Positions 10,017 to 26,995 of a stretch of DNA of 64,000 bases are shown here, in pieces. The first letter of the stretch is position 1; every line of letters begins with the position of its first letter. Below the pieces are notes generated by a model. That model saw nothing but the letters and a program-made list of their open reading frames with translations, was not told the DNA's origin and did no database searches. This stretch comes from an uncultured Candidatus Saccharibacteria bacterium. GTDB lineage: Bacteria; Patescibacteriota; Doudnabacteria; UBA920. A program made the translations under genes and the position numbers. The DNA is taken from positions 5,354 to 69,353 of the forward strand of contig CAZRKK010000002.1 of NCBI GenBank assembly GCA_964600695.1, read 5' to 3'.

Positions 10017-10034
10017 TTTTTAAAGAATAAATAT

Positions 10035-10616: not shown

Positions 10617-10638
10617 CCTCTAATAGAGAAATAATTAT

Positions 10639-10992: not shown

Positions 10993-11005
10993 CTAATTTA
11001 AATAT

Positions 11006-11509
11006 ATGGAAAAAAGAACTCGTAGAAACAATTCAAGAGACGGCGGAGAAGCCCGTGAATTCGACCAAAAAGTGGTTGAGATTAAGCGTGTAACCCGTGT
11101 AGTTGCTGGTGGAAAACGTATGCGTTTTCGTGCACTTGTTGTAATTGGTGACCACAAAGGTAAAATCGGTATCGGTTTAAAGAAGGGGATGGATGTAACC
11201 GAAGCTGTAAACAAAGCTGTTAATGCTGCAAAGAAAAGCATGATCGTAGTACCAATTGTTAACGATACAGTTCCTCATCAAGTTAACATTAAGTATAAGT
11301 CTAGTAAGTTGTTAATGATGCCTGCTCGTCCTGGTACTGGTGTAATTGCTGGTGGTGCAGTTCGTAGCGTACTCGACCTTGCTGGTGTTAAGAATGTAAT
11401 CAGTAAAATGATTGGTTCTAACAACAAAACTAATAATGTCCGAGCCGCTTTCGAAGCTTTTAAAATGATGCGTAGTAAAGAAGAAATTTTAAAGAGCCGC
11501 GCAAAATAG
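11006..11509 (+). CDS. rpsE: 30S ribosomal protein S5
   Basis: KRVTRVVAGGKRMRFRALVVIGD. Confidence 0.95.
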   Translation: MEKRTRRNNSRDGGEAREFDQKVVEIKRVTRVVAGGKRMRFRALVVIGDHKGKIGIGLKKGMDVTEAVNKAVNAAKKSMIVVPIVNDTVPHQVNIKYKSSKLLMMPARPGTGVIAGGAVRSVLDLAGVKNVISKMIGSNNKTNNVRAAFEAFKMMRSKEEILKSRAK

Positions 11510-11536
11510 TTCTCAGTTAAATTTAATTTCAATTAT

Positions 11537-11971
11537 ATGATCAAACTTCATCAATTAAAACGTCATCCAAAAGCTACAAAGCGCCGCAAAGTTGTCGGTC
11601 GTGGTATTGGTAGTGGTCACGGTACTTACTCTACTCGTGGTGCTAAGGGACAAAAGTCTCGTACAGGTCACTCTAAGTCTCCGGCACGTTTTGAAGGTGG
11701 TCGCCAACCATTGATTCGTCAAATTGGTAAACTTCGTGGATTCAAGAGCTTAGCTCCGAATGCATTTGCAGTTAAGTTGGATTTGTTAAACTCATTACCT
11801 GATGGTACAGAGGTTACATTAAATAGCTTAAAGGCACACGGCATCATTGATACTGGTGTTAAGAAGGTAAAGATTCTAAAAGGCGAACTTAAGCGAAAGC
11901 TAGTGGTTGCTGTTCCTGTTTCTGCTACTGCTAAGGCTTCTATTGAAGCTGCAGGCGGTAGTATCAAATAA
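11537..11971 (+). CDS. rplO: 50S ribosomal protein L15 (follows S5 directly; no L30 gene)
   Basis: MIKLHQLKRHPKATKRRKVVGRGIGSGHGTYSTRGAKGQKSR. Confidence 0.95.
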   Translation: MIKLHQLKRHPKATKRRKVVGRGIGSGHGTYSTRGAKGQKSRTGHSKSPARFEGGRQPLIRQIGKLRGFKSLAPNAFAVKLDLLNSLPDGTEVTLNSLKAHGIIDTGVKKVKILKGELKRKLVVAVPVSATAKASIEAAGGSIK

Positions 11972-11981
11972 ACTTATTAAG

Positions 11982-12095
11982 AGCCTATGGCAATTATTAA
12001 TTCCTGTCGCTAAACTGCTACGTCTGCTAAAAATTTCTTCGAAACTTTTGCATACTGGGCAGTGATGCTCCTTGAATCAACAATTGCCATAGGCT
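11982..12095 (+). promoter_or_regulatory. Long-range 14-bp perfect inverted repeat enclosing ~85 nt between rplO and secY (structured RNA or operator candidate)
   Basis: AGCCTATGGCAATT at 11982-11995 pairs with AATTGCCATAGGCT at ~12081-12094. Confidence 0.35.
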
Positions 12096-12142
12096 TTAAA
12101 GTTTAATTAGACCTGATTTGAGGATTAAAGTATAATACAAAT

Positions 12143-13420
12143 ATGAATAAATTAAGCTTAATTTGGAAAACTAAAGATTTGCGTTGGAAGATCTTCATGG
12201 TCATGATGTTGCTTTTAGTGACTCGTGTTTTGGCTCATGTCCCAATTCCTGGGATTAGCGTCACTGGCTTGAAGGCTTTCTTCGAAAGCAATCAATTTTT
12301 AAACTTATTGAACGTTTTTTCTGGTGGTGGACTAAGTAACTTTTCTATCGCTATGCTTGGTGTTGGACCATACATCACAGCATCTATTATTATGCAGTTG
12401 TTGGTCATGATTGTTCCTTCACTTACAGAACTACAGAAAGAAAGTGGAGAAGCTGGTCGAGTTAAAATCAACCAGTACACTCGTTTTTTGACTTTGCCAT
12501 TAGCAGTTTTGTCTGGTTTCGGAACTATTCGATTATTACAAAGCCAAGGTGGGGCAGAGTTACTTGGAACTTTCTCTCCTTTCCAGTGGTTCCTAACTTT
12601 GTTAACAGTTACCGCTGGTACAATGTTGGTTATGTGGATCGGTGAAATCATTTCCGAATACGGAATTGGTAATGGTGTATCTTTAGTAATTTTCGCCGGT
12701 ATCGTTTCTCAGTTACCTAAGAGCGTTGGTTCGTTGGTTCAGTTATATGATCCAAGCCAATTACCAACCATTATTGGATTTGCTATTGTCGCTTTGATCG
12801 TTATCGCCAGTGTAGTATTTGTGACTGAAGCTCAGCGCAATGTCCCGGTTACGTATGCAAAGCGGGTGAGTGGAGATAAACAAGTTGGTGGAGTTAACTC
12901 ATTCTTACCGTTACGTCTTAACCAAGCAGGTGTTATTCCAATCATCTTCGCAATTTCATTATTGTTGTTCCCAGCGATTATTGCTCAGTTCTTCTTAAAT
13001 GCCAAGACTCCTTTGATTGCTGAATATGCCCAAAAAGCTATTGATTTTACAAATAATCAAGGCGTTTGGTATGGCGTATCTTACTTCCTATTAGTTGTTA
13101 TATTCACTTATTTCTACACTAATATTGTTGTAAATCCAGATGAAGTTTCCGAAAACATGCAACGCAGTGGTGGCTTTGTTCCTGGTATTCGCCCCGGGAA
13201 GCAGACTGCTGATTACTTATACAAAGTTTTGAACCGCATCACTTTGCCTGGATCCTTATTCCTTGGTTTAATCGCTATCCTGCCTTTCATCTTACAAACA
13301 TGGACAGGAACCCGAGCATTAACATTTGGTGGTACTGGATTGCTGATTGTAGTAGCGGTAGTAATTGAAAGTATCAAGCAAGTCGAGGCTCAGCTAACTA
13401 TGCACGACTATCAAAAATAA
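12143..13420 (+). CDS. secY: Preprotein translocase subunit SecY
   Basis: 425 aa, ~10 TM helices, typical SecY profile and position after L15. Confidence 0.95.
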   Translation: MNKLSLIWKTKDLRWKIFMVMMLLLVTRVLAHVPIPGISVTGLKAFFESNQFLNLLNVFSGGGLSNFSIAMLGVGPYITASIIMQLLVMIVPSLTELQKESGEAGRVKINQYTRFLTLPLAVLSGFGTIRLLQSQGGAELLGTFSPFQWFLTLLTVTAGTMLVMWIGEIISEYGIGNGVSLVIFAGIVSQLPKSVGSLVQLYDPSQLPTIIGFAIVALIVIASVVFVTEAQRNVPVTYAKRVSGDKQVGGVNSFLPLRLNQAGVIPIIFAISLLLFPAIIAQFFLNAKTPLIAEYAQKAIDFTNNQGVWYGVSYFLLVVIFTYFYTNIVVNPDEVSENMQRSGGFVPGIRPGKQTADYLYKVLNRITLPGSLFLGLIAILPFILQTWTGTRALTFGGTGLLIVVAVVIESIKQVEAQLTMHDYQK

Positions 13421-13426
13421 ATTATT

Positions 13427-13460
13427 AACTCCCTCTAGTAATTAGGGGGAGTTTTTTTAT
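13427..13460 (+). terminator. Intrinsic terminator closing the ribosomal/secY operon
   Basis: aactccctct ... agggggagtt hairpin + T7. Confidence 0.75.
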
Positions 13461-13499: not shown

Positions 13500-13874
13500 A
13501 TGGCAGAAGAAATAAGAAAAATTCCTGGATTCGAATCAGAGCAATCTGCGGAACCAAATAGCAACGAGTCCCCAGAATCAGAACAGACTGAATCTCTAGA
13601 AGCATCGTCTTCGGAAACTCTGAGTGATAATAACTTAGACCAGCAGGATTTGAACGAGACACCAATTGAAGAAGAAGTCGATACATCTAACTTATCGATC
13701 GAATCAGCTTTAGAGCCCAAATCAGGAGTGACTGCTTCTGATTCTATTGCTTCCGAAAGTAACGATGAAGTTCTTTCTGAAAGATTGTTAGCCGACAGTA
13801 AAGAATTAGAGACTGCCACCGAAGCCCGTAAACTTTTAAATGATATCTTAGGCACAACCGAAACTAAAAACTAG
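13500..13874 (+). CDS. Highly acidic Ser/Glu/Asp-rich, probably disordered protein (124 aa from ATG 13500; ORF track start 13479 would lie inside the promoter)
   Basis: MAEEIRKIPGFESEQSAEPNSNESPESEQTESLEASSSE...; 36 nt upstream of the ATPase gene. Confidence 0.5.
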   Translation: MAEEIRKIPGFESEQSAEPNSNESPESEQTESLEASSSETLSDNNLDQQDLNETPIEEEVDTSNLSIESALEPKSGVTASDSIASESNDEVLSERLLADSKELETATEARKLLNDILGTTETKN

Positions 13875-13909: not shown

Positions 13910-16468
13910 ATGCCTTTTGGATTTGAACTCAATACTGTAATTTATGCATCACTACTACTAGGAATTTTAGTAGTAGTGTTTTTGCTTGTCGCTGCTTATT
14001 ATATTCACAGGCATTGGTATTACAGTCATGTCATTTTACCCCGCACTAAAGAGTGGGTGTTTTTGGAAATTCAAATGCCAAAAGACAACAGCGAGGATAA
14101 AGAAAAATATCAACGCGATGAAGAAAAAAAATTACTAATTGGTATTGCCGAGCAATTATTCACAACTTTATCAGGAATTAGTCACACTAATTGGTTTTGG
14201 CAACCTAAAGAATATATAAGTTTTGAAATTGCGTGTACAGACAAAAAGATTTCCTTTTATATCAATTGTCCGCGTAAGCTTCAGGAGCTAATAGAAAAAC
14301 AAGTTCAAGCTCAGTACCCTCACGCTTTTATCGAGGAGATTAAAGGCTATAATCCCTTTCCAGAAACTGGGGAGATCGAAGCTACCGAGTTAAGATTGAC
14401 CAAGCCTTATATGTATCCTTTTCGTACTTACAAGAGTATGGAAACAGATCCATTGAATGCGTTAACAAACGCTATGTCAAAACTGAGCGATGGTGATGGG
14501 GCGGTTATTCAAATGATTTTGTATCCAGCAGGGGATCACTGGCAGCATCGTCCGCGGCACATGGCTTTAGAAATTCAGCAAGGTAAAAATCCGAACATTG
14601 TTGCCAAGAGTGCGTTTGGAAGATTTGCGCGCGAGGTAGGAAGCACAGCTAAGGATGGTGTCTTAGGTGGAACTCAGTTAAGTAAAGATCAAATGCAACA
14701 ACGTACCGATTTGTCGGGACGTTATTCGGCCATCAACTTAACTCCGATGCAACAAGACATGGTTAAGCGTTTCGAAGAAAAAGCTAGCCGCCCAGGCTTC
14801 TATACCAACATTCGTATTGTCACAGCATCACCAACTCCTGGAACAGCTAAAGTGAATATGCATAATTTAGTGTCTTCATTTTTGCAGTACAACATGCCGC
14901 CGTTTAATGGTTTTAGAGTTAAGCGTCGTGCTAAGAAGCGTATTATTAAAGATTATATTTTTAGAATTTATCGCCGCTACGGACGTAAGTCTATTTTAAA
15001 TACCGAAGAATTAACTAGTATTTGGCATCTTCCGACTCCATTTTTGGAAACACCTAATATTAAATGGTTGTTATCTAAAAAAGCTCCACCACCTATAAAC
15101 TTGCAACCAGAAGGAATATTACTAGGCCGAAATATATATCGTGGGCAGGAGACACCAATTCATATGGCACGTGATGATCGTCGTCGTCACATGTATATTT
15201 TGGGACGTACTGGTGTGGGTAAAACCGAAATCATGAAATACATGTCCGTTCAAGATATCAAGAACGGTGATGGAATTTGTATTATCGATCCTCATGGTGA
15301 TTTTATTGAAGATGTTTTACCTCACATTCCAAAAGAACGAGCCGAAGATGTAATCTTATTTGACCCATTCGATACCGACAGGCCGATGGGTTTGAACATG
15401 CTCGAAGTCACTAGTGAAGGTCAAAAAGATTTTGCTGTTCAAGAAATGATCTCTATCTTTTATAAATTAGTTACAGATCCTGCGATGCTTGGACCTATGT
15501 TCGAGCACAACATGCGTAATGCCATGCTAACCTTAATGGCTGACGAAGAAAATCCTGGAACTATTGTTGAAGTCCCACGTATATTTACGGACACTGAATT
15601 CCAAAAGTATAAAGTCTCTAAATTAAATGATCCTGTGGTAAGAGCATTTTGGGAGAAAGAAATGGCCAAGACTTCCGATTTTCATAAGTCGGAAATGTTA
15701 GGTTACTTAGTTTCTAAAGTAGGCCGCTTTGTAGAAAATTCCATGATGCGAAATATTGTTGGTCAACCAAAGAGTTCTTTTAACTTCCGTGATATCATGG
15801 ATAACAAAAAAATTCTTTTGGTGAATTTAGCAAAGGGTAAAGTAGGGGAGGTGAACGCAAAATTAATTGGCTTAATTTTAGTGAGTAAAATTCAAATGGC
15901 GGCATTGTCCCGTGCAGATATTCCAGAAAGCGAACGCCAAGATTTCTATTTATATGTTGATGAATTCCAAAACTTTATTACCGATGCTTTTTCTTCTATT
16001 TTGAGCGAAGCCCGTAAGTATCGATTGAATTTGATTATTGGTCATCAGTTCTTAGCTCAGTTGGGGCAAGCAGCTGGTGCGCAAGGTGCAGCTAGTAACG
16101 ATTTACGTGATGCTGTGTTTGGTAATGCTGGTAGTATGGTAACTTTCCGTATTGGTGTAGAAGATAGTGAAGTTATGGCAAAGGAGTTTGCACCAACTTT
16201 TAATGAGTTTGATTTATTAAATGTCGATAGATTTAATGCTTTTGTAAAGTTGATGATTAATGGAACAGCCAGCAAACCATTTAACATGGCCACATACCCC
16301 TTAGCTAAACCAACTGAAGATCAAAAGAAGACAGGGGATGCTATTCGACAGTTATCAAGGTTAAAATTTGGTCGTCCACGGGCCGAAGTTGAAGCAGAAA
16401 TCCTAGAAGCCAGCCAAGTTGCTGATATGATGGCGGCTGGTCCAGGGAGTATCGAGAAAACGGTTTAA
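13910..16468 (+). CDS. Membrane-anchored P-loop ATPase of the VirD4/TraG/TraD type IV coupling-protein family, with a ~380-aa N-terminal domain of unknown function
   Basis: Single N-terminal TM helix; Walker A ILGRTGVGKTE; Walker B LYVDEFQNF; C-terminal ARKYRLNLIIGHQFLAQL resembles the coupling-protein R-x-x-G...Q...QL motif. Confidence 0.6.
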   Translation: MPFGFELNTVIYASLLLGILVVVFLLVAAYYIHRHWYYSHVILPRTKEWVFLEIQMPKDNSEDKEKYQRDEEKKLLIGIAEQLFTTLSGISHTNWFWQPKEYISFEIACTDKKISFYINCPRKLQELIEKQVQAQYPHAFIEEIKGYNPFPETGEIEATELRLTKPYMYPFRTYKSMETDPLNALTNAMSKLSDGDGAVIQMILYPAGDHWQHRPRHMALEIQQGKNPNIVAKSAFGRFAREVGSTAKDGVLGGTQLSKDQMQQRTDLSGRYSAINLTPMQQDMVKRFEEKASRPGFYTNIRIVTASPTPGTAKVNMHNLVSSFLQYNMPPFNGFRVKRRAKKRIIKDYIFRIYRRYGRKSILNTEELTSIWHLPTPFLETPNIKWLLSKKAPPPINLQPEGILLGRNIYRGQETPIHMARDDRRRHMYILGRTGVGKTEIMKYMSVQDIKNGDGICIIDPHGDFIEDVLPHIPKERAEDVILFDPFDTDRPMGLNMLEVTSEGQKDFAVQEMISIFYKLVTDPAMLGPMFEHNMRNAMLTLMADEENPGTIVEVPRIFTDTEFQKYKVSKLNDPVVRAFWEKEMAKTSDFHKSEMLGYLVSKVGRFVENSMMRNIVGQPKSSFNFRDIMDNKKILLVNLAKGKVGEVNAKLIGLILVSKIQMAALSRADIPESERQDFYLYVDEFQNFITDAFSSILSEARKYRLNLIIGHQFLAQLGQAAGAQGAASNDLRDAVFGNAGSMVTFRIGVEDSEVMAKEFAPTFNEFDLLNVDRFNAFVKLMINGTASKPFNMATYPLAKPTEDQKKTGDAIRQLSRLKFGRPRAEVEAEILEASQVADMMAAGPGSIEKTV

Positions 16469-16509
16469 GTAGCTGTAAGCAGCCATAATTAGTAATAAGT
16501 CAGTGGGTA

Positions 16510-16538
16510 TTGACAAAATCAACTATTTGTGATATTAT
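16510..16538 (+). promoter_or_regulatory. Perfect-consensus sigma70 promoter TTGACA-N17-TATTAT
   Basis: TTGACA 16510-16515, 17-nt spacer, TATTAT 16533-16538; GGAGG RBS at 16578-16582. Confidence 0.65.
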
Positions 16539-16593
16539 ATTCGCAGTAGTTTTTTTGTAGTTTAAATCAATTTAGTTGGAGGACTTTGTTAAT

Positions 16594-17064
16594 ATGTATA
16601 AAAACTCGTTGGTCATGAAGATGATCCTAACGTTTGCGGCCTTTAGCGCCGTCGTTGTATTCCTGAACTACGTGGTCGGCATGCCGACTACTAAGCGCAT
16701 GAACTTCGTCTTGATGAGCTATGGTGTTGGTTCGGCCACCATCTTGGCTCTCGCGGCCGTTTTTCCGAGCCGTCTGACATCGGCGCTGTGCCGTCTTGTG
16801 CAGATTGGTTGGGCAGTGGCCATCGTTCTCGGTGGTTTTGCTATGATTATTATCATTGTGGTTGGTTTGGGGCAGTTTAACCTGCCGTTCCTATCGCTAC
16901 AGTGGTATAGCCTGTTCATGGCTTTAGGAATCTTGGGGGCCAGCGTGTTCATGTTTGTCAACGACTCGTATTTTGAAGTCGTTAACGAATATGAAAGCAA
17001 AGCTGGGAAGCCTAAGGTGGTGACACCGCCGGCAAACAGCACTTCGTCGAGCGTTTCGGCATAG
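16594..17064 (+). CDS. GC-rich (compositionally foreign) small 4-TM membrane protein (ATG 16594; ORF track uses TTG at 16576)
   Basis: Four hydrophobic helices; codons strongly G/C-ending (TCG, GCC, CCG, GTC) unlike flanking genes; own promoter and terminator. Confidence 0.6.
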   Translation: MYKNSLVMKMILTFAAFSAVVVFLNYVVGMPTTKRMNFVLMSYGVGSATILALAAVFPSRLTSALCRLVQIGWAVAIVLGGFAMIIIIVVGLGQFNLPFLSLQWYSLFMALGILGASVFMFVNDSYFEVVNEYESKAGKPKVVTPPANSTSSSVSA

Positions 17065-17091
17065 AAACTCCGCACAAGGGTTAGAAGTATT

Positions 17092-17128
17092 GGGTAAGAG
17101 CGAAAATATTCGCTTTTACCCTTTTTTT
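17092..17128 (+). terminator. Intrinsic terminator
   Basis: GGGTAAGAGCGAA-aata-TTCGCTTTTACCC hairpin + T7. Confidence 0.75.
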
Positions 17129-17169
17129 ATTGCCTAAAATTGCCATTTTAAAATTTCTGTTATCAGCTA

Positions 17170-17198
17170 TTGACAAAACATCAAAAATAGTGTATACT
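17170..17198 (+). promoter_or_regulatory. Consensus sigma70 promoter TTGACA-N17-TATACT followed by a ~180-nt structured leader
   Basis: TTGACA 17170-17175, TATACT 17193-17198; 11-bp perfect hairpin at 17234-17277; GGTCA/TGACC palindromes at 17276-17293 and 17331-17346; GGAGG RBS at 17371-17375. Confidence 0.6.
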
Positions 17199-17385
17199 GT
17201 TACTTAAACTAAATATTGGTTAGAAAGTGAATTACCTTCAGAAATTCAGATTTATCGAGATATGGTTTTCTGAAGGTCATGCACGTGTATGACTGTTGTA
17301 GCGCTGTAAATAAAAAAACAGCATTGTAACGGTCAATCACATGACCAAGTTTTCAAAAACAGCCTAAGGAGGGCTAATCAATACT

Positions 17386-18102
17386 ATGCAGAAATTCATT
17401 ATTTCGTTCGTTTTTGTCGCAATGTCACTTATGGCTGTTTCGTCGGCCTCGGCCCAGAATCCGGACTTGAACGTTCCGGTGCCTTCGGGAAAGACGCAGA
17501 CCACGAAGAGCCCGGACTTGAACGTTCCGGTGCCTAACAAGTCGGTTCAAAGTTCGGCTAACGTCTATAGGACGTACCGCAACACTACGGTCGTTAAGAA
17601 GTATTCCATGAACGGCGTCGACAAAGACGCTCGTGAAGTGAATGTCGCTCAGGACATTCGTATAAAAAAACTGGAAGACGGCAAGGCTAACTCGTCGGAC
17701 GTCGAAGCAGGATTTAAGTCGGTTGACGATCGTTTCGCGGCTAAGGATCAGGTGGATGCACGACAGGACCGAGAGCTCGGATATACTTTCTGGGCTTTCA
17801 TAATCATCCCGGTAGTCTTTCTGGTTCTGGCGTTGTTGTACTTCATGTTTGGAGGCAACAATAATAACGTTCAGGTTAACGGTGGTGGACATGCACCGGC
17901 ATACGTACCTCAGGCCCAGCCTGCAGTACAGCCGATACCATACTACCAGCCTATTCCTGCACAACCCGTTCCTGCGGCACAACCGGTTCCTGCAGCCAAC
18001 CAACAGCCAAGCGTAAATGTTCCGATCAATATTGCGGTCGAGCCGATTCAGATCGATCTCCGACCGTCGTTGCGTGGAACACCGCCGGCACCCGCTCAGT
18101 AG
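17386..18102 (+). CDS. GC-rich secreted/single-pass membrane protein with tandem PDLNVPVP repeats and a Pro/Gln-rich tail
   Basis: Signal peptide MQKFIISFVFVAMSLMAVSSASA; exact 24-nt direct repeat at 17461-17484 and 17512-17535; TM FWAFIIIPVVFLVLALLYFMF; tail PAVQPIPYYQPIPAQPVPAAQPVPA. Confidence 0.6.
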   Translation: MQKFIISFVFVAMSLMAVSSASAQNPDLNVPVPSGKTQTTKSPDLNVPVPNKSVQSSANVYRTYRNTTVVKKYSMNGVDKDAREVNVAQDIRIKKLEDGKANSSDVEAGFKSVDDRFAAKDQVDARQDRELGYTFWAFIIIPVVFLVLALLYFMFGGNNNNVQVNGGGHAPAYVPQAQPAVQPIPYYQPIPAQPVPAAQPVPAANQQPSVNVPINIAVEPIQIDLRPSLRGTPPAPAQ

Positions 18103-18109
18103 TGAGCAT

Positions 18110-18150
18110 CTCTCTTACAGAGAGCAAGGTAAAACTTGCTCTCTTTTTTC
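18110..18150 (+). terminator. Intrinsic terminator (two tandem hairpins + T-run)
   Basis: ctctcttacagagag and AGAGCAAG-gtaaaa-CTTGCTCT followed by TTTTTTC. Confidence 0.7.
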
Positions 18151-18212
18151 ATTTTTATAAAAAATAGTGGTATAATTAAAACAACTTTAAATTGTTAATT
18201 CGAAACAAAAAT

Positions 18213-21200
18213 ATGGCTAAAGCCGAAATGGCTCGTCAACCAGATCAAGGTCCAGAACCGGCAATTGACTTGTCGAAAACACTCAAAACCAGTGTAGATG
18301 ATGCTAAAAATAGAGCACGACCACGAGGCCGTGATGTTGATTTTGCTATCCAGCAGAATGATATGCGCGAAGCTAATTTAAGACAGGGTCATCCAGACAT
18401 ATCTGATAAAAAAGAGTTTATTCGACGGGAAAAGGCAAAGAACGAGGCGCGTAGTAAGTCTAAATCTGAAAAGGGACCTAAAAAGAATGAAGTAATTCTT
18501 CAACCTATAGCTCCGGCAGAAAAATTAAAAGCTGTAGTTAACCAAGAAAAAGCCGCGCAGAAACAAAAACCAGAGCAAAAGCCGGAAACACAGCCAGAAC
18601 AAAAGATAGCTCAACAAGAACAAAAAGCAGCCCAAGAAACCAGTAAAGTTGTAGAAAGTGTAGTTCAGGAAAGCACTAAAGAGATGTCCGCAGAAGTGGA
18701 CAAGGCACTTGCCGTACATGCAATTAGTCCAGAACATGCTCAGCAAGCCAAAGCAGTTATAAACAATGAACAGGTAAAGCAAGGAGTTTTTTCTAGAGCT
18801 TTTGGTGCTATAAAAGACAAAGCAGTGGGTGTTAAAGAGTGGTTTGCAGATAGTCCTAGGTTAACTTCACTTTTGGTTGGTGCGGGTACTGGTATGGGTG
18901 TTCGTTACGCTGTTAAGGCTGGGTTTATTGCTGCATTTGGAGCAAACTTACCTTGGTTGGTTGCCGCAGGTGCCACTGCAGGTGGTTTACTAGAAGGTGG
19001 GCGTTCATTTTGGCGTGAATCAAAATCCTATCAATCTAAAGAGATTATGGATCGGTTCAGAAGCGCGGATTATCTAGAAAAGGCAGCCATGCTTTCTAAG
19101 CTTGAGGAAGCATACAAAACCCAAAGATTTGATGCGTCTCCAGAAGGTTACCAAGAAATTGGTACAGCTTTGGCTCATGCTCGAACAGAAATGCAACTTG
19201 AATTAGACAAAAAGGATGGCAAGTTTGCTAATCATTCCGATCGAGATAAAATTCAATATATTTTAAATTTATCACAAGGTATTAAGGGTGAAATTCATAA
19301 AGATAATCGTGGTAAGGAAGCCAGAAAGCTTATTCGTGACATCGAAAAGAGCTTAGAGTACAAGCGTGATTTTAAAGGTGTCTTACAGAACAAAAAGATG
19401 GTAGTTGCCAAGGCAGCTCTTAAAGGTGCAGCTTATGGTGGGCTGGGTTCATTAATCGGTGGGGCAGTATCACACTATTTCTTCGAAAGTGGAACAACTC
19501 AAACTGTCAGCCATGTTGTCGAGAACAGACCTACTGTGGCAGATCATTTTACAAAACATTTAGATCATCGAGGTTTAACCGGTGGTGCTCGTGATTCATT
19601 GCATGATTTGATAGAAGAACAAAGAGGTATTGATCCTAATTTTGCCGAAGGAGTCACTGTAGAGCAACTAGTTTATGCAGAAGACACTCTCGCTAAAGAG
19701 GCTATTAAAAATGGCGTTAAGTCTGGCGTTTCGGAGCATACTTGGACTCATGATGAGTTGATGCGAGCCTTAGAAAAATCTGGAGCGGTTGGAGATAGTT
19801 CTACGCTTACTGAAGCAGGAGAAAGGAATATCGGACGATTGATTTCGCATCGACCTCATTTCTTGTCCGAAGCTACCAAAGAGAAAATGCTTGATTTTAC
19901 ACCTAAAGATTTTAATGTAGTTGTTGAGCAAATTACTTCTCAACCAGAAAATATCGTTCTCTCAAACGAAGATTATGCAGCTATTATTGGTGCACTAACC
20001 CTAGTAGCGGCTTCAGAAGTGGCTAGTGCCGCCGACAGAAGAATCGCTAAGAATCGGCTTGAACAAATGCAAGCGAATCCTCCAACTGGCCAGCCAGGGG
20101 ATGGTGTAGAAACAGCTCCAGCTAATAATGTTGTATGGCCTACAGAAGGTGTTCTTACTGCAGAAGAAGCACGTGTGGATAATAGAAAATTCCCTAATGG
20201 CCCACCACCGTCACCATTTGATGGTAATGTAGAAACTACTCCTACACCTAAACCAGAGGGTAGTCCTTTTGATGACGAAAAAAAGCAAAATGCAGAGTCG
20301 ACTACTAATAAAGCAGGTAAGGTTGAGGAAATTGACGAAGATGTTGAAGCTCAAGTGGATGTACAAGATTTGCCTGGTGTAGAAAAAATCAAAGACTCGG
20401 AAGTTACTCCCGATGCAATTAATCGAAAACTGAAGAGTGCAAAAGTTAATGCAGAAGTAGTACCATGGCCTTTAGAAAAGATTACCAACAAACAGAAAGG
20501 ACAAATTAACAGATTAACTGATTTATATATTTCTTCGGCACGCAAGTTAAACGCCTTAAATATTACAAATAAGGTTGTCTTGAATTTTTATCCAACAGGT
20601 TCAAGAGAGTTAGATTTTACAGATTCTGAATTTACCGCTGGTATTCCTCTTAGTGATAAAACTTATAATAAAAAGAGCTTCGAGAGCTTAGTAGATAGGA
20701 TGATTGAAACTAAGATTTCCGAAAAGTTTGCTGAAATACAAAATAACTATGCATTTCAAACAGAGATGCCTGTCATAGGAAATTCAGAGGATGATCAAGC
20801 TGTTGAACAGTATAAAGCTTTAGATAAATTCCAGCGAAACATGGAAGCAATCGACGCAAAAGAATTAAAACGACTAACTTCTGGACTTAAGAAAGTTACA
20901 ATTGGTGACTATTCATTTATAGGTACTGATGAGGTGGTTCTACCAATGTTTATTAGAGACAACAGGGGTTATCATTATAAATCTTTCAAGCCTAACCAAT
21001 TAAAGGGTATGTTGAAAGAGTATTCCAAAGATCGGTTTGCGTTAAAGCCGATGGATTTAAAAGAGCAGAATGATAAATATCCAAATATTGGAGCAGATAA
21101 AAACTTTTACGATAATATCGAGGAAGCTGAGAGGATAAAAGCAGAAGAATTAGTATACAGTGTTATTGAAAATGAATTCAAAGATGGTTTTCCACCAAAC

Positions 21201-21806
21201 GTAAAGGTATTGTTTTCGGATAGATTCCAGTCAAAGCCAGGTGTCTTATACCTCGACATGTCAAAGTTTGACCAAGCATATATTAGTCGTCAGCTTCACC
21301 AAGGATTGCGTCGTTCTGCGCCAGATCGTTTACAGCGCACTCCTGGTCCTGTTAAAGAGCGTTTAAAGCGGGTTTCTCCTGATTATGGGAATAAAAAGTC
21401 TGACCAAGACAAAGCCATTGAAGCAGCTGTTGATAGAATAATTCGACCCGAAGATTGGGAGAAAAAAGAAACTGGGCCAGCTAATTTAAACCATATTGAA
21501 GAACAGAACGGAGAAGATGAGCTCTATAGTTTACTTGGAGACATAGATAAGAAATATCCAGGGTCTATCTCCGAAAGCATGCAAAAAAAGATCTCTAGTT
21601 ACTTAAAAGACAATAATTTATCAGCAGAGGATTTACTAACCGCCGATAAATTACCTAAAATTACGAGTGTTCTTCCTAAAAAACTTGAGCAGTACATAGC
21701 CGAAGAGTCGTTTGCTAAACTAGAAAAACTGGCAATGGCCGACGAGGATTATACTGACGAAGGCATTAGATTAAAAAATCAGTTAGAAGAATTCATCAAA
21801 AAATAA
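18213..21806 (+). CDS. Giant hypothetical protein (~1197 aa): K/Q/E-rich disordered N-terminus, Gly-zipper hydrophobic hairpin, large C-terminal region without recognised catalytic motif
   Basis: Continuous 3.6-kb ORF; promoter atagTGgTATAAT at 18166-18176; hydrophobic LTSLLVGAGTGMGVRYAVKAGFIAAFGANLPWLVAAGATAGGLL; start ATG 18213 (ORF track 18192 is TTG). Confidence 0.6.
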   Translation: MAKAEMARQPDQGPEPAIDLSKTLKTSVDDAKNRARPRGRDVDFAIQQNDMREANLRQGHPDISDKKEFIRREKAKNEARSKSKSEKGPKKNEVILQPIAPAEKLKAVVNQEKAAQKQKPEQKPETQPEQKIAQQEQKAAQETSKVVESVVQESTKEMSAEVDKALAVHAISPEHAQQAKAVINNEQVKQGVFSRAFGAIKDKAVGVKEWFADSPRLTSLLVGAGTGMGVRYAVKAGFIAAFGANLPWLVAAGATAGGLLEGGRSFWRESKSYQSKEIMDRFRSADYLEKAAMLSKLEEAYKTQRFDASPEGYQEIGTALAHARTEMQLELDKKDGKFANHSDRDKIQYILNLSQGIKGEIHKDNRGKEARKLIRDIEKSLEYKRDFKGVLQNKKMVVAKAALKGAAYGGLGSLIGGAVSHYFFESGTTQTVSHVVENRPTVADHFTKHLDHRGLTGGARDSLHDLIEEQRGIDPNFAEGVTVEQLVYAEDTLAKEAIKNGVKSGVSEHTWTHDELMRALEKSGAVGDSSTLTEAGERNIGRLISHRPHFLSEATKEKMLDFTPKDFNVVVEQITSQPENIVLSNEDYAAIIGALTLVAASEVASAADRRIAKNRLEQMQANPPTGQPGDGVETAPANNVVWPTEGVLTAEEARVDNRKFPNGPPPSPFDGNVETTPTPKPEGSPFDDEKKQNAESTTNKAGKVEEIDEDVEAQVDVQDLPGVEKIKDSEVTPDAINRKLKSAKVNAEVVPWPLEKITNKQKGQINRLTDLYISSARKLNALNITNKVVLNFYPTGSRELDFTDSEFTAGIPLSDKTYNKKSFESLVDRMIETKISEKFAEIQNNYAFQTEMPVIGNSEDDQAVEQYKALDKFQRNMEAIDAKELKRLTSGLKKVTIGDYSFIGTDEVVLPMFIRDNRGYHYKSFKPNQLKGMLKEYSKDRFALKPMDLKEQNDKYPNIGADKNFYDNIEEAERIKAEELVYSVIENEFKDGFPPNVKVLFSDRFQSKPGVLYLDMSKFDQAYISRQLHQGLRRSAPDRLQRTPGPVKERLKRVSPDYGNKKSDQDKAIEAAVDRIIRPEDWEKKETGPANLNHIEEQNGEDELYSLLGDIDKKYPGSISESMQKKISSYLKDNNLSAEDLLTADKLPKITSVLPKKLEQYIAEESFAKLEKLAMADEDYTDEGIRLKNQLEEFIKK

Positions 21807-21809
21807 GCC

Positions 21810-22124
21810 ATGATTAAAGATACAATAGACAAGGTTCTTAAAGAGTTAAACGTCAACAATCTATCTGATGATGATAAGTTTGCGGTGATGGAGCAACTTA
21901 CAGAGCACTTTAACAAAATCATTCTAGACACAGTACTAGCTAATCTTAATGACGAGCAACTCCTCGAGTTTAAGAATATGGTTGATCTGGAGGATTTAGA
22001 TAAAATGGAAGAAGGAATTGCTCTTATTGTAGCCAAAATTCCCGCAATAAACTTTAAAATCGAAGAAGCCATTAATAATGAAATCGCTCATATTAAAGAA
22101 TCCAAAGCGATAATCGATCGATAG
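21810..22124 (+). CDS. Small acidic helical protein, translationally coupled (3-nt gap) to the giant protein; candidate chaperone/immunity-type partner
   Basis: 104 aa, Asp/Glu-rich (NLSDDDKFAVMEQLTEHF ... DLEDLDKMEEG). Confidence 0.5.
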   Translation: MIKDTIDKVLKELNVNNLSDDDKFAVMEQLTEHFNKIILDTVLANLNDEQLLEFKNMVDLEDLDKMEEGIALIVAKIPAINFKIEEAINNEIAHIKESKAIIDR

Positions 22125-22234
22125 TTACTTTCTTTTTAAACATAGTTGTGGTATAGTTCTGGTAACTGTCTAGGACTGAATTTATTGCGGAAACAGAAAT
22201 CAAAATTTAAAAATCAAAGAAAACCAAAAACAAA

Positions 22235-22882
22235 ATGGATAAATCAGCAAATTTTGCTTTGATCGTGCAAATGATCGAAGCTGCAGAAAAGAATATTCAA
22301 TCGGCTAAGCATTTATTGCGAGAAATGGCCGGTGGAACTGTATCTAAATCTTCCACTAACTTTTTAGAAAAGGCTAGTGGTCTTGATGTTAGTCAAGGTG
22401 GTAAAGTTGTCGAGGGTGTGTTTGATGGACAAAACATGATTGGTCCGGATAGCAAACAGTACCCAGTTCCAGCTAATTATGCATCCAAATCCAAATTAGT
22501 TGAAGGTGATGTGCTTAAATTAACAATCGCAGATGACGGCTCGTTTATTTATAAGCAGATTGGGCCAGTTGAGCGTCGCAAGTTGATTGGTGTGTTAATG
22601 CAGGACGAAAATGGTGATTATAAAGTTATCGCAGATGGCAAAACTTTTCGGGTTTTATTGGCTTCACTTACTTATTTTAAAGCTCAGGGTGGTGACGAAG
22701 TAACTATTGTTGTCCCTAGTGAAGGTGATACTCAATGGGCTGCAGTAGAAAATGTGATCAAGCATTTAGGTGGTGACGGAAGTTCCGACGGGGAATTTAG
22801 TGCATCCGCTGGGCTGCAAGACCAAAAAGATGAAGACATGGAAGCTGAGGGTTTAGCCTCTGGCGAGACAGAAGAATTTTAA
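22235..22882 (+). CDS. Hypothetical protein with acidic C-terminal tail
   Basis: 215-aa ORF; upstream ttgTGgTATAGT extended -10 at 22148-22158 and CA-rich SD-less leader. Confidence 0.55.
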   Translation: MDKSANFALIVQMIEAAEKNIQSAKHLLREMAGGTVSKSSTNFLEKASGLDVSQGGKVVEGVFDGQNMIGPDSKQYPVPANYASKSKLVEGDVLKLTIADDGSFIYKQIGPVERRKLIGVLMQDENGDYKVIADGKTFRVLLASLTYFKAQGGDEVTIVVPSEGDTQWAAVENVIKHLGGDGSSDGEFSASAGLQDQKDEDMEAEGLASGETEEF

Positions 22883-22909
22883 TTTTTAATCTTAATTAGG
22901 ATTAGTTTT

Positions 22910-23578
22910 ATGGAAGGTCAGTTGCTTACATTCAATCAAAAACTAACTCAATTGCTGGCAAATAAACCAGTTATTTTGCAAATTCTAAAATTTGCTGCTA
23001 TAGGTGCTCTTAACACAGCTTTAGATTTTATTATTCTCAATTATGTTACTAAAGCTTTTGGTGTGGAATCAGGACTTAATTTAGGCCTTTTAAATGTCAT
23101 TAGTTTTGGAGCAGCAATGATTCAGAGCTACTTATGGAATCGGGCATGGACCTTTGCAGCATCTAATTCTTCTCCTTTATCTAATCTATTTCGGTTGATA
23201 GTTGTTGGTGGTTTGGGGTTTGTTAGCTTTTTATTGGTGGTTATAGGTGGAATTTACAGCGTAGTCGATACCTATTACTTATTCATTTTAATAGTATTTT
23301 TAATTGCAGAAATCTTGATTTGGTATGGTTTTAACCTTAATTTAGGTAGTGATTCCAGTGTTGGTGTCGGTCATCAGTTTGGAATATTCATGATTGTTAG
23401 TTTAATTGGGTTATTGATAAATAGCGGAATTGTAGTAATTGCTTCTATGGCTCTAGCCCCGACATTATCTAATTTAATTAATGTGGATTCTGTAAAGAAT
23501 GTAGCTAAGATCCTGGCAACCATGGTTTCTTTGATCTGGAATTTTGTAGGTTATAAGCTATTTGTGTTCAAGAAATAA
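22910..23578 (+). CDS. GtrA-like polytopic membrane protein
   Basis: N-terminus ILKFAAIGALNTALDFIILNYVTKAFGV resembles the GtrA family; ~5 TM helices. Confidence 0.5.
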   Translation: MEGQLLTFNQKLTQLLANKPVILQILKFAAIGALNTALDFIILNYVTKAFGVESGLNLGLLNVISFGAAMIQSYLWNRAWTFAASNSSPLSNLFRLIVVGGLGFVSFLLVVIGGIYSVVDTYYLFILIVFLIAEILIWYGFNLNLGSDSSVGVGHQFGIFMIVSLIGLLINSGIVVIASMALAPTLSNLINVDSVKNVAKILATMVSLIWNFVGYKLFVFKK

Positions 23579-23612
23579 TTTTTAAAAAAGTAGCATAATT
23601 AAGCTAAATTTT

Positions 23613-23636
23613 ACTGGCGTATAGCCAGTTTTTTTA
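23613..23636 (+). terminator. Intrinsic terminator
   Basis: ACTGGC-gtata-GCCAGT + T7; followed immediately by tatggTATAAT promoter (23637-23645) for dnaX. Confidence 0.75.
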
Positions 23637-23722
23637 TGGTATAATATAAGGAGCAAAGACAGTGATTTACTCAGCAAAACACTAGCAAATCTGGTATCAA
23701 AATAAATTAGAAACAAATTTAA

Positions 23723-25273
23723 ATGGCAGTATTTTACCAAACATATCGACCACAAAATTTTTTGGAAGTCATTGGCCAAGAGGCGATTGTTAAAACCCTT
23801 CAACAAGCTGTTGCAAGCGGGAAGATTGGTCATGCTTATTTGTTTACCGGCAGTCGTGGTATAGGAAAAACTACACTAGCAAGGATACTGGCTAAGGCCG
23901 CTAACTGTAATACTCTTAAAGATGGTAACCCTTGTGGGATTTGTGATATTTGTTTAAATATCGCCAATGGTTCCTTCTTGGATGTAATAGAAATTGACGC
24001 TGCATCTCATACTGGTGTAGATAACATCCGCGAACTCATCGAACATATTAGATTTCAACCTTCACAGGGTAGAACTAAAGTTTTTGTAATAGACGAAGTA
24101 CATATGCTTTCCAAAGCAGCCTTTAATGCTTTACTCAAAACTTTAGAAGAACCACCATCACATGTCTTGTTCATTTTAGCTACTACTGACATAGAAAAAG
24201 TTCCGGATACGATTATTTCTCGAACTCAGCGATTTGATTTTAGAAAGATTACTACCGATCAAATTAAAAAAGCTTTGCAACAAATTGTTAAGGTAGAAAA
24301 ATTATCTTTGCCAGAAGAGGCTATTGATGTCATTGTCGAAAATAGTGAAGGTGGTTTACGAGATGCTTTATCTCAATTATCATTAGCTGCTCATTTAGAT
24401 AGCTCTGCAAAGGCAGAAGACATTCATTTGTTGTTGGGAACAACATCACGGTCATCAGTTTTGGAGTTGTTGAATTTAATTTCCGAAGGTAAGACTTATG
24501 AGTTAAACGCTTTTTTTAACAAATTAACTCAAGCTAATTTTGATGCTGTTTCTTTTGCCAGAAAGACTTTAGTTATTTTACAGGAGCATTTAGAGGCAAA
24601 TCTTTCTGCTTCGAGTGACGGTAAAAATGGCGCTAATGATTTGATTGCAAGTCTTAGCCTTGCTCAGTTACTTTACATTATTCGATTGTTTATGCGAGCT
24701 TACAAAGAGATTGATAAAGCCTTAACTCCAGAACTTCCCTTGCTAATGGCTAGTATCGAAGCGGCGTTATTTATTAAACCTAACTCGACAATTTCTGTGG
24801 AAAAAGGCCGAAGTGAGCAAAGTAGCTCCGCGGCTACAGCATCGATAATTTCTACAAGTGAATTAGTGGATATACCAATTCAAAAGCAACCAGTTTTTGC
24901 TACAGAAAATATCGAGCCCGAGCAGGATAGTGATTTAAATTTAACAGCTGAACAGGTTAAAGAGTGGTGGCCTGGTCTTGTAGCAGAAGTGAAGGCAGTG
25001 AACAGCCCTTTGTCTACTTTGTTAAAAAATTCTCCTATCCATGAGGTTTCCGGTAATCGAGTCAGTGTAATGGTTAGATACCTTTTCCATAAAGAACATT
25101 TAGAAAATGCCAAGATTCGCGTGATGATTTCCAATTATCTAGGCGAAAAAGCTGGTGGAAACGTAGAATTTAGAGTAGTGATCCAAAAAGATTCGGTTGG
25201 AGAACAAATCGTTGATACGGCCTCTGCTGTATCTGATGCAATAAAAATATTCGGTGGCGAATTGGTGGAGTAA
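23723..25273 (+). CDS. dnaX: DNA polymerase III subunit gamma/tau
   Basis: GHAYLFTGSRGIGKTTLARILAKAANC; clamp-loader AAA+ motifs. Confidence 0.9.
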   Translation: MAVFYQTYRPQNFLEVIGQEAIVKTLQQAVASGKIGHAYLFTGSRGIGKTTLARILAKAANCNTLKDGNPCGICDICLNIANGSFLDVIEIDAASHTGVDNIRELIEHIRFQPSQGRTKVFVIDEVHMLSKAAFNALLKTLEEPPSHVLFILATTDIEKVPDTIISRTQRFDFRKITTDQIKKALQQIVKVEKLSLPEEAIDVIVENSEGGLRDALSQLSLAAHLDSSAKAEDIHLLLGTTSRSSVLELLNLISEGKTYELNAFFNKLTQANFDAVSFARKTLVILQEHLEANLSASSDGKNGANDLIASLSLAQLLYIIRLFMRAYKEIDKALTPELPLLMASIEAALFIKPNSTISVEKGRSEQSSSAATASIISTSELVDIPIQKQPVFATENIEPEQDSDLNLTAEQVKEWWPGLVAEVKAVNSPLSTLLKNSPIHEVSGNRVSVMVRYLFHKEHLENAKIRVMISNYLGEKAGGNVEFRVVIQKDSVGEQIVDTASAVSDAIKIFGGELVE

Positions 25274-25360: not shown

Positions 25361-26995
25361 ATGTTTACTAACCCAGAACAAAAAAATAAAAAGATTACCT
25401 TTGCAGTAATAGCGATGGCGGTCGTTGCTTTGGCCGTGGTAACAATATGGCAACCAGGAGAGTTAAGCTTCACGGATAAAACAGATTACAATGCTGAGAC
25501 ACAAAGAGCTCAGGCTGAATTAGCACAATACAAAGCCTTTTTAGCGGAACTTGAACCAAATTACGAAGCTAGTCAACAGTTATTAAAAAAGATTGCTAGT
25601 GCAGATGTAGTTCGTGCAGAAGTTGAGCAGACTTTACAGACAAAGCAGAAAATTGTTATTCCACAAATCGCCAACTCCGAATTAAATATCAGCGATCGTA
25701 AGGATAAAGACTTTGTTTTAAATTATTTGAACACAGTTAGTTCCATGGTGGCTAATTACAAAAATGCAGTTCAACCCGGAACTAATGATTTATTTGTTGA
25801 TAATGCCAACTCTGCTAGTTTGGCTAGGGCTAAGTCGGAAACCGATAGATTTTTAGCAAATTTACGCGGTGTGTCTGTGCCTGCTAGTTTAGTTGAATTA
25901 CACAAAGCTAATATTGTTTCTTTTCAAAAGTACGGACAAATTTTTAATGATGCAGCAAGTTATAGCGAGGGAAGTAACATCGATCCATGGCCAAGTTTCT
26001 ACCAGAGTTACGCTGTGATCGATAATAGATTAGCTGTAGTAAGTAACGAATTAACAAAAGTTGGAAATCAGTTTGCTTTAGCCGAAGAGTTAGAGCGCGC
26101 AACAGGGCCACCATTTATTAAAGTAGCTCAAGCTCAATTAGGTGGTGTGGTAGTAGTTTCTACAGATTTAAAGCGTGATATTTTGGAAGGCATTAAAGAA
26201 GGTTTGGCTAAGTCTTTTGCAAACTTTTCCATGAAGATGCTAGATAAATTAGTCTCTCATATCGAAAAAAGTTTTGCTATTGCTAGTCAACTATATTATT
26301 CCAATGAGCTTGGTAGGTTCTATTCTGTTGAGTATATGAAGAAATTTGTTTCTGATCCACTGGACCAAAGTATTATCCAAAAGTTTTTACCCGAATACTT
26401 TTGTATCGCGCCAAACAAAAAAGATTTGAATAAAATCTTTGTAGCCAAGGCAGCCGAAAATGTGGGTAATGATATAACCATTAATCCGAATGATCCAGAC
26501 TTTGTAGAAAAACTAGCACGGTTGGGAAGTGATGAAAAAAATTATCCACAATGGTGGGAAGGTTACTATCAAGGTTTGGCAGCACAAACAAAGGCAGAGG
26601 CCGAAAGTGCTTCTACTAAAGAAGTTTTGAGCCCTGGAGTAAAAACCGGGAGAGACATAATTACTAACCAAGTTAACAAAACAGTTTCGGCAATTTTCAG
26701 TGTACAAGAAGCGGCAATTTCTGGAGCAATTAACTTAGGAACCAATAACACAGGTAGCCCTGTGAGTCAGTTAGTTTCTGGTGTGGTAGAAGGCTTGGTT
26801 AATAAATTTGTGTTTACCCCAATAAGTGGTGGAGCTTCTAGTGGCGGTGGGATTGGCGTTATCCAAGAAAAAAATGTTTGTCTACAAACTCAAGAGATTA
26901 AGCCTTTGATTCCATTACCTTCATCGGAATACGAAACACCTACAGGAACAACTACAGCTCCAGTTACATCACCACCGTTTGTACCACGTAATTAA
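25361..26995 (+). CDS. Hypothetical exported protein with N-terminal TM anchor and Gly/Ser/Thr/Pro-rich C-terminus
   Basis: 544 aa; TM ITFAVIAMAVVALAVVTIW; C-terminal SGGASSGGGIG ... TPTGTTTAPVTSPP. Confidence 0.55.
   Translation: MFTNPEQKNKKITFAVIAMAVVALAVVTIWQPGELSFTDKTDYNAETQRAQAELAQYKAFLAELEPNYEASQQLLKKIASADVVRAEVEQTLQTKQKIVIPQIANSELNISDRKDKDFVLNYLNTVSSMVANYKNAVQPGTNDLFVDNANSASLARAKSETDRFLANLRGVSVPASLVELHKANIVSFQKYGQIFNDAASYSEGSNIDPWPSFYQSYAVIDNRLAVVSNELTKVGNQFALAEELERATGPPFIKVAQAQLGGVVVVSTDLKRDILEGIKEGLAKSFANFSMKMLDKLVSHIEKSFAIASQLYYSNELGRFYSVEYMKKFVSDPLDQSIIQKFLPEYFCIAPNKKDLNKIFVAKAAENVGNDITINPNDPDFVEKLARLGSDEKNYPQWWEGYYQGLAAQTKAEAESASTKEVLSPGVKTGRDIITNQVNKTVSAIFSVQEAAISGAINLGTNNTGSPVSQLVSGVVEGLVNKFVFTPISGGASSGGGIGVIQEKNVCLQTQEIKPLIPLPSSEYETPTGTTTAPVTSPPFVPRN

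Follow-up and report, generated by a model that had tools for sequence, protein, structure and literature searches.

In a 64,000-nucleotide (nt) stretch of contig CAZRKK010000002.1 from an uncultured Candidatus Saccharibacteria bacterium (assembly GCA_964600695.1; the whole stretch is hereafter called the window), a gene for a giant protein of 1197 amino acids (aa) is followed at once by a gene for an acidic protein of 104 aa. With a rough probability of 0.45, the two are read here as a vertically inherited, Patescibacteria-restricted operon which would encode a resident four-pass membrane protein with glycine (Gly) zippers and a dedicated cytoplasmic acidic partner that binds its conserved core. 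This reading draws on the gene structure, a promoter and terminator of the operon's own, strict co-occurrence and adjacency, the relative conservation of the two proteins, their lack of relation to known families, and a charge pattern in the giant. The topology, the binding of the two proteins and the region that is bound are proposed from these, as is the cellular role, which is most likely an envelope-associated process.

Related loci were gathered from the giant, using close and distant members, and independently from the small protein in metagenomes, and hidden Markov model (HMM) searches were run on their six-frame open reading frames (ORFs). The initial annotation of the window had proposed checking whether homologous pairs always co-occur, and the core of the giant was found next to a small-protein homologue in 17 of 17 distinct informative loci (L018, a 1.1-kb contig too short to judge, was left out). 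Each locus carries exactly one core protein and one small-protein homologue, and the contigs are labelled Candidatus Saccharibacteria or Patescibacteria. The gap between the two genes ranges from -4 to ~+30 nt; in one locus (L011) the order is reversed and the small gene lies 13 nt upstream of the giant. Small proteins are 32-61% identical to that of the window, even beside giants with cores that are just ~25-30% identical. Over 12 genome pairs, mean pairwise identity was 41.7% for the small protein, 37.0% for the giant core, and 20.0% for the part of the giant that follows it. Conservation of the small protein thus at least equals that of the core. Divergence of the small protein follows that of the core (r=0.87), a correlation to which shared phylogeny contributes. 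Identity in the C-terminal region falls smoothly with core identity, from 86% at 97% core identity to 34-37% at 53% and ~19% at ~41%, and no abrupt cassette replacement of C-termini was seen among the compared pairs. In Saccharibacteria the location of the pair is constant: it lies between secY and dnaX, with housekeeping genes around it. A functional pairing of the giant and small genes is supported by this comparative sequence evidence. Two outcomes had been named as fatal to the initial annotation, a match of the large protein to a housekeeping family and a small ORF that is absent or non-conserved in related loci; the giant matched no family, and the small ORF is conserved.

The gene structure was taken from the ORF list and its translations, which reproduced the sizes, coordinates and 3-nt junction first reported. 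The giant ORF runs on the + strand from the ATG at 18213 to the TAA at 21804-21806, and the junction with the small ORF reads TAA-GCC-ATG. An in-frame TTG at 18192 would give a protein of 1204 aa; it is the less likely start because the homologue P0003 begins with the same MAKAE that the giant has from ATG 18213. Since both ORFs have conserved homologues of conserved length, both are regarded as real genes. In the window they also share a reading frame, separated only by TAA GCC (21804-21812). A readthrough fusion was considered and rejected, as the shared frame is not kept in L001, L003, L007, and L008 (gaps of 4 or -4 nt), and the frame in the window is probably a coincidence. Translational coupling of the two genes is suggested by the spacing of -4 to ~+30 nt in all related loci together with the lack of any promoter-like site between the ORFs. 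The missing Shine-Dalgarno motif at the pair is uninformative because such a motif precedes just 11 of the 53 window genes. The small ORF and the signals upstream of the giant are as follows.

18119..18152, + strand: strong intrinsic terminator of the upstream 238-aa gene (also placed at 18119-18144), with a 10-bp stem, 5 G-C pairs and a T-run, which shields the pair from the genes before it.
18168..18176, + strand: TGGTATAAT, an extended -10 element assigned as promoter to the giant-small operon, recognised by its motif count in the window.
21810..22124, + strand: small ORF of 104 aa, a predicted acidic five-helix partner and apparent divergent DUF5663 relative.

The TGGTATAAT motif is present in 7 copies in the window against 1.67 expected, and every copy stands just upstream of a gene start (13482, 18168, 23637, 46371 on the - strand, 48962, 52067, and 56938 on the - strand). 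Promoters of the window seem to rely on this extended -10 element in general, and translation starts are mostly independent of a Shine-Dalgarno motif. Upstream of the pair lie an ATPase gene, a 162-aa gene and the 238-aa gene, and every one of them has a promoter-like site or a terminator to itself. Between the ATPase and the pair there are thus two further genes and two strong terminators, and the promoters are separate. Because the terminator and TGGTATAAT precede the giant and the neighbours carry their own promoters or terminators, the giant and small ORF are assigned to a bicistronic unit of their own that, judged from these signals, is not co-transcribed with the ATPase. No DNA repeats were found in the window region of the pair.

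The giant itself can be divided into eight regions, all on the + strand.

18213..18812, + strand: residues 1-200, basic (isoelectric point, pI, 9.4), K/E/Q/A-rich, low-confidence, predicted cytoplasmic.
18861..18992, + strand: residues 217-260, hydrophobic hairpin of the Gly/Ala-zipper type, bordered on either side by K/R-rich stretches (in-out-in).
18999..19391, + strand: residues 263-393, conserved helical region, basic (20-25% K+R), predicted cytoplasmic.
19392..19472, + strand: residues 394-420, third hydrophobic helix, a Gly zipper in which G405, G409, and G412 are invariant, predicted in-to-out.
19530..19952, + strand: residues 440-580, alpha/beta domain and most conserved part, predicted local distance difference test (pLDDT) 70-85, K/R-poor, predicted extracytoplasmic.
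19968..20030, + strand: residues 586-606, fourth hydrophobic helix, predicted out-to-in, its position kept in 9 of 10 members.
20070..20372, + strand: residues 620-720, linker, Pro-rich, acidic, low-confidence.
20373..21806, + strand: residues 721-1197 and stop, subfamily-specific C-terminal region, pLDDT ~80-86.

The hydrophobic hairpin of the initial annotation is placed at residues 217-260, where invariant positions are G223, G227, K235, AAFGA240-244, P247, A252, G253, and G257. The disordered K/Q/E-rich N-terminus of ~200 aa described there likewise agrees with the low pLDDT (<50) of this K/E/Q/A-rich part, which is only 12-16% identical to distant homologues. Within residues 440-580, G454, T456, R460, E484, H549, S552, and T555 are invariant across the family, and the spacing of the three hydrophobic elements (217-260, 394-420, and 586-606) recurs in 9 of 10 diverse members. 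The charges around these elements are informative for topology. Summed over nine members, K+R residues in the 20-aa flanks number 41 before and 42 after the hairpin, 50 before and 11 after helix 3, and 11 before and 30 after helix 4. K+R content is 19-25% in the stretch from the hairpin to helix 3 and 6-12% between helices 3 and 4. These flank charges obey the positive-inside rule, which is established knowledge, consistently across the nine diverse members. Read by this rule, the pattern predicts a four-pass membrane protein with cytoplasmic termini and a conserved domain outside, and it would leave the Pro-rich linker and the C-terminal region in the cytoplasm.

The giant was modelled with AlphaFold2 on an alignment of 13 sequences; mean pLDDT is 53, and the model is confident at 440-530, 720-1050, and 1100-1197. 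In this model the C-terminal region consists of three alpha/beta modules (a helix, 3-4 strands, and a long helix) followed by a helical tail. No match to the giant was found in Pfam, NCBIfam, PADLOC, or PHROGs, whether it was searched whole or in nine segments, and the ~900 residues in which the first reading recognised no motif remained without a Pfam or NCBIfam match. Foldseek against the PDB gave no fold match (best E 0.7), and in PDB sequence searches neither the core profile nor that of the small protein returned anything usable; a marginal match to 7o97 (E 0.004) was discarded, as it covers 37 helical residues. Weak Foldseek matches of the C-terminal modules had pointed to a zincin-like metallopeptidase; this lead was rejected, being unconfirmed, with no HExxH motif and no significant structural match. 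The giant contains neither HExxH nor Cys. Comparison of the three modules by hhalign showed no internal repeat relation among them. In two homologues (P0007 and P0009) the first module is tandemly duplicated, profile positions 1-99 being matched twice.

A word-indexed search of 5.8 billion proteins found homologues of the giant (n=12, 26-97% identical). In their alignment, conservation centres on residues ~196-625, here called the core, and the N-terminus and the C-terminal half diverge fast. When the core profile was compared exhaustively with 1.84 billion cluster representatives, 86 proteins were matched, 51 of them at E<1e-10, from Saccharibacteria, Parcubacteria, and Doudnabacteria; a second word-indexed search with the core profile returned mostly low-complexity candidates and one fragment. 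Almost all members are 600-2300 aa long, and the core usually begins 100-250 residues from the N-terminus, although in P0043 it comes close to the C-terminus, after an N-terminal extension of 1100 aa. Pfam searches of 39 distant members revealed no domain besides two incidental matches. The C-terminal region is considered subfamily-specific because its profile (720-1197) matches the 12 close homologues only. One distant member, in L011, lies in a variable region (16000-24500) with genes for a reverse transcriptase (RVT_1), Fic, SLFN/AlbA_2, a PP2C phosphatase, and kinase-like proteins. The reverse transcriptase raised the idea of a diversity-generating retroelement acting on the variable C-terminus, which was dropped, since no template/variable repeats were found.

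The small protein agrees with its first description as acidic and helical. It has 23 D+E against 12 K+R residues (pI 4.46) and no tryptophan, and AlphaFold2 models it, by itself, as a confident five-helix bundle (pLDDT 82.8, predicted template modelling score 0.72). It has no signal peptide, transmembrane (TM) or hydrophobic segment (peak Kyte-Doolittle value 1.32). No match to it was found in Pfam, NCBIfam, PADLOC, or PHROGs, none of the known secretion chaperones matched its fold, and its profile showed no relation to that of the core. PF18908 (DUF5663) is a family of Patescibacteria-enriched small proteins which resembles it in size and all-helical character. Even at E<=0.1 the window protein itself has no match to PF18908. 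For its homologues the scores are 14.9-28.9 bits (L014 28.9, L016 23.1, L001 21.6), and only that of L014 passes the Pfam gathering threshold of 23.7 bits. The window protein aligns over its full length with the L014 protein (42% identity) and the L016 protein (37%), and is thereby linked by transitive homology, via L014, to a protein that passes. On these alignments the small protein is placed as a divergent branch at the edge of the uncharacterised DUF5663 family, a membership that explains nothing mechanistically. By the sequence searches, then, neither protein of the pair belongs to a characterised family.

The preferred reading, a resident membrane protein with a cytoplasmic partner, can be set out as follows. 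The basic disordered N-terminus of the giant would lie in the cytoplasm, and the Gly/Ala-zipper hairpin would dip into the membrane and return, so that the basic helical region stays cytoplasmic. The third helix would cross outward and display the alpha/beta domain (~440-580) outside, and the fourth would return, leaving the Pro-rich linker and the fast-evolving C-terminal domain in the cytoplasm. The small protein would be made in step with the giant through tight translational coupling and would act as a partner of its conserved core; it could be a stable subunit, or a holdase protecting the marginally hydrophobic Gly-zipper segments until they insert. The basic residues 263-393 would be the most likely docking site for this acidic partner.

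Several observations weigh against this model. Kyte-Doolittle 19-residue peaks of the giant's segments are 1.15-1.75 (1.1-2.0 in the family), compared with 2.2-3.1 for 13 clear membrane proteins of the window and <=1.6 for its soluble proteins. The segments are thus just marginally hydrophobic, between the two classes, and AlphaFold gives them pLDDT <50; for these two reasons constitutive membrane insertion of the giant is not certain. A Pro-rich linker and a fast-evolving domain would be more typical of the outside of the cell than of the cytoplasm. No fusion of small protein and giant (a Rosetta-stone protein) was found among ~100 family members, and no domain of the giant allows its function to be read.

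The relation of the pair to the ATPase is central to most other readings. The ATPase (13910-16468, 852 aa) has one TM helix and a TrwB/VirD4-type P-loop domain (Pfam TrwB_AAD_bind, 1.2e-10; TrwB in the PDB, 1e9r, 5e-8), its homologues carry an N-terminal DUF8128 domain, and it is extremely conserved across Saccharibacteria loci. It also matches phrog_5156, of unknown function, near full length (E 2.8e-94), and the TM, DUF8128 and TrwB-like architecture is therefore found in phage-derived protein families as well. The initial annotation correctly placed the pair downstream of a coupling-protein-like ATPase, which ends 1.7 kb upstream. Its suggestion that the pair might track with this gene did not hold: the two are separate transcription units, and the ATPase is absent near the pair (within 6-10 kb) in 6 of 16 informative loci (L011, L015, L020, L022, L023, and L024; L006 is uninformative, as its contig starts at the giant). 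Four of these (L011, L015, L020, and L022) lack the ATPase, the 215-aa orphan, GtrA, and DnaX alike, and in L023 and L024 there is no ATPase within 6-7 kb upstream. All four genes accompany the pair only in Saccharibacteria-type synteny, and the link between ATPase and pair is one of synteny only. No structural gene of a type IV secretion system (T4SS), VirB4-type included, was found among 30 window ORFs scanned, and the pair does not show the obligatory VirD4-type ATPase together with a T4SS that would mark a T4SS substrate.

The initial annotation had seen in the pair a secreted or membrane-inserting effector with a chaperone or immunity protein. A dedicated chaperone or partner remains plausible for the small protein; the effector and immunity parts fared worse. 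A version of this idea holds that the giant is an exported, membrane-inserting translocator or effector, and that the small protein is a secretion chaperone which shields the Gly-zipper segments and hands the giant to the ATPase or to a separate T4SS, after which the giant would insert into the producer's envelope or a host membrane. This is judged unlikely, though not negligible. The marginal hydrophobicity of the zippers is typical of proteins kept soluble before insertion, and the partner is small, acidic, helical, adjacent, tightly coupled, and follows the conserved core, not the variable end, in its divergence. A variable region is joined to that core, and most Saccharibacteria loci carry the TrwB-like ATPase on the upstream side. 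The epibiotic way of life of Saccharibacteria also speaks for export, together with their essential T4SS, for which no substrates are known (PMC10633639). Set against this, the positive-inside pattern across nine diverse members fits a resident Sec/YidC-type membrane protein, and the fixed, vertically inherited housekeeping position does not suit a secreted effector. The ATPase is a separate unit, missing from the 6 loci named above, and in S. epibionticum it is non-essential. None of the 30 scanned ORFs was recognised as a T4SS structural gene, the small protein lacks a fold match to known secretion chaperones, and C-terminal divergence is gradual rather than modular.

Three known systems invite comparison with this version. 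Type III secretion system (T3SS) translocators and their class II chaperones (IpaB/IpgC, YopB/SycD) combine a large hydrophobic-hairpin protein with an adjacent small, acidic, all-helical partner, as the pair does. Here, however, there is no T3SS and no sequence relation, the partner has no Pfam match, TPR-repeat families included, and no chaperone fold match, and the charge pattern points to a resident membrane protein. In type VI secretion systems (T6SSs), the genes of prePAAR effectors and Eag (DUF1795) chaperones are adjacent like those of the pair, and the chaperone tracks the conserved TM-bearing N-terminal region of the effector, not its variable C-terminus. Eag chaperones are not known as all-helical bundles, unlike the five-helix small protein, and the window pair has no PAAR, Rhs, T6SS, toxin domain, or immunity gene. 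Systems in which VirD4 or TrwB receives a substrate with a small acidic chaperone (VirE2/VirE1; IcmS-IcmW of Dot/Icm) share with the window the upstream ATPase and an acidic partner beside a large protein; they differ in that the ATPase linkage of the pair is not obligatory, its transcription is separate, and no VirB4 or other T4SS gene was found in the scanned window ORFs. The giant is also unrelated to known T4SS substrates. Type VII secretion (WXG100, or LXG-Lap with EssC) was considered and set aside. WXG100 proteins are two-helix hairpins of ~100 aa with a W-x-G motif, whereas the five-helix small protein lacks tryptophan altogether, and in place of a multi-domain FtsK/SpoIIIE ATPase the window has one of the single-domain TrwB type.

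It is less probable still that the giant, the VirD4-like ATPase, and the two intervening small membrane proteins form one translocation apparatus specific to the candidate phyla radiation (CPR), with the Gly-zipper helices as channel and the small protein as accessory subunit or substrate. Glycine zippers are typical of oligomeric channels, and 10 of 16 informative loci share the order ATPase, small membrane proteins, giant, small protein. In this block, however, secY, the 215-aa gene, GtrA, and dnaX are conserved in order too, and the linkage may be plain conserved gene order; each gene has its own promoter and terminator, and in the 6 remaining loci the pair stands without a nearby ATPase. 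Type IV coupling protein (T4CP) homologues number 5713 in 2918 Patescibacteria genomes, 148 of them near virB4; most of these genes are orphan and have been suggested to be exapted, which would suit such an apparatus (PMC12102498). Their distribution is nevertheless far wider than that of the giant, for which 86 clusters were found. An even bolder extension, considered improbable, is an undescribed epibiont envelope machine in which an oligomeric giant Gly-zipper channel would be gated or loaded by the DUF5663-like partner, powered by the ATPase in Saccharibacteria, and required for epibiotic growth, like the similar-looking SEML1_0161/SEML1_0162 pair of S. epibionticum.

A polymorphic toxin with a variable C-terminus, for which the small protein would provide immunity, is very improbable. 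The idea starts from that variable C-terminus and a small neighbouring gene. Nevertheless, no part of the giant is as conserved as the small protein, which is common to members with unrelated C-termini and does not co-vary with them. This is the opposite of a hypervariable immunity protein that tracks its toxin, and the smooth C-terminal divergence gives no sign of cassette swapping. The initial annotation had advised a search of the giant's C-terminus for toxin or peptidase folds; none was detected with Pfam, NCBIfam, PADLOC, or Foldseek, and the giant has no toxin, peptidase, or nuclease domain. Moreover, the housekeeping position is fixed, there are no orphan immunity arrays, and L011 has the small gene in front of the giant. 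A domesticated phage tape-measure-like protein with its chaperone is hardly credible: tail tape-measure modules do typically combine a long helical protein, its hydrophobic segments rich in Gly, with a chaperone that is small and acidic, but neither protein has a PHROG match or a relative in the viral contig collection, no phage genes lie near the conserved housekeeping context, and the chaperone gene is normally upstream of the tape-measure gene.

A similar arrangement was found in the genome of S. epibionticum ML1, for which transposon sequencing (Tn-seq) calls are given in supplementary tables, the main text being silent on these genes (Wang et al., 2023; PMC10633639). SEML1_0161 encodes a 767-aa orphan with no Pfam or Foldseek match; its Tn-seq calls are GD/ES/ES, and insertions fell from 99 in the input DNA to 12, 0, and 0 at T0-T2. 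A DUF5663 gene, SEML1_0162, lies 14 nt downstream, is also called GD/ES/ES, and is flagged as a core family and as Patescibacteria-enriched. It is followed in tandem by a second DUF5663 gene, SEML1_0163 (NE/GD/GD), and the TrwB-like ATPase of this genome, SEML1_0293, is ~117 kb away and non-essential (NE/NE/NE) (PMC10633639). Much as in the window, a large orphan precedes a DUF5663-type gene; the two pairs are likened by arrangement alone and not by sequence. The context of SEML1_0161/SEML1_0162 differs, with IF-2 upstream, fmt downstream, and two tandem DUF5663 genes, and the S. epibionticum proteins of this family are ~140 aa long compared with 104 aa in the window. Size-matched members of the giant family (P0061, P0070, and P0097) have contexts other than that of SEML1_0161. 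If the essential S. epibionticum pair were homologous, its function could be studied directly in this genetically tractable organism.

Patescibacteria account for much of bacterial diversity and grow attached to other microbes, and a function has yet to be assigned to most of the conserved genes specific to their lineage. Conserved pairs of orphan genes are frequent among them. Neither DUF5663 nor DUF8128 was mentioned in the literature searched, where the strict coupling of a giant with a DUF5663-type gene is likewise undescribed. With the present analysis two hypothetical proteins become a defined and testable module, comprising a rare giant family with a mapped core and a predicted topology and a partner of the DUF5663 lineage, and a tempting annotation as toxin/immunity pair or T4SS effector is removed as unsupported. 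The importance of the pair would rise if the S. epibionticum pair proved homologous, or if the giant were a channel or translocator at the interface between epibiont and host.

The window as a whole is a housekeeping stretch of a small-genome bacterium (38% G+C) with nearly all genes on one strand. Upstream of the pair, genes for ribosomal proteins S8, L6, L18, S5, and L15 are followed by SecY, a short acidic ORF, and the 852-aa ATPase; the two genes between the ATPase and the giant encode a polytopic membrane protein (162 aa) and an exported, anchored protein (238 aa). The spc ribosomal-protein operon (9624-13453) ends at secY with a strong terminator, and its usual adk-map-infA continuation is absent. 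In place of these genes secY is followed by the block of ATPase and giant, as it is in L001, L003, L007, L008, and L016. The short ORF (13500-13874), between the secY terminator (13427-13453) and the ATPase and under the promoter of the latter, encodes ~125 aa that are acidic, Ser/Glu-rich and probably disordered; it is barely conserved and was detected in L008 only. On the 3' side of the small gene are the 215-aa orphan, GtrA, DnaX, a 544-aa orphan, HtrA, RuvX, GalT, and TIM, and still further downstream are genes for glycolysis, penicillin-binding proteins, and other housekeeping functions. The 215-aa orphan (22235-22882) is soluble and without a match in Pfam or NCBIfam; its gene invariably accompanies GtrA, and it is very strongly conserved, being present in all 12 Saccharibacteria-type loci (E 1e-85 to 1e-137). 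The 544-aa orphan (25361-26995) has one N-terminal TM helix and no Pfam or NCBIfam match, and it is found in the nine loci that reach far enough (E 4e-40 to 0).

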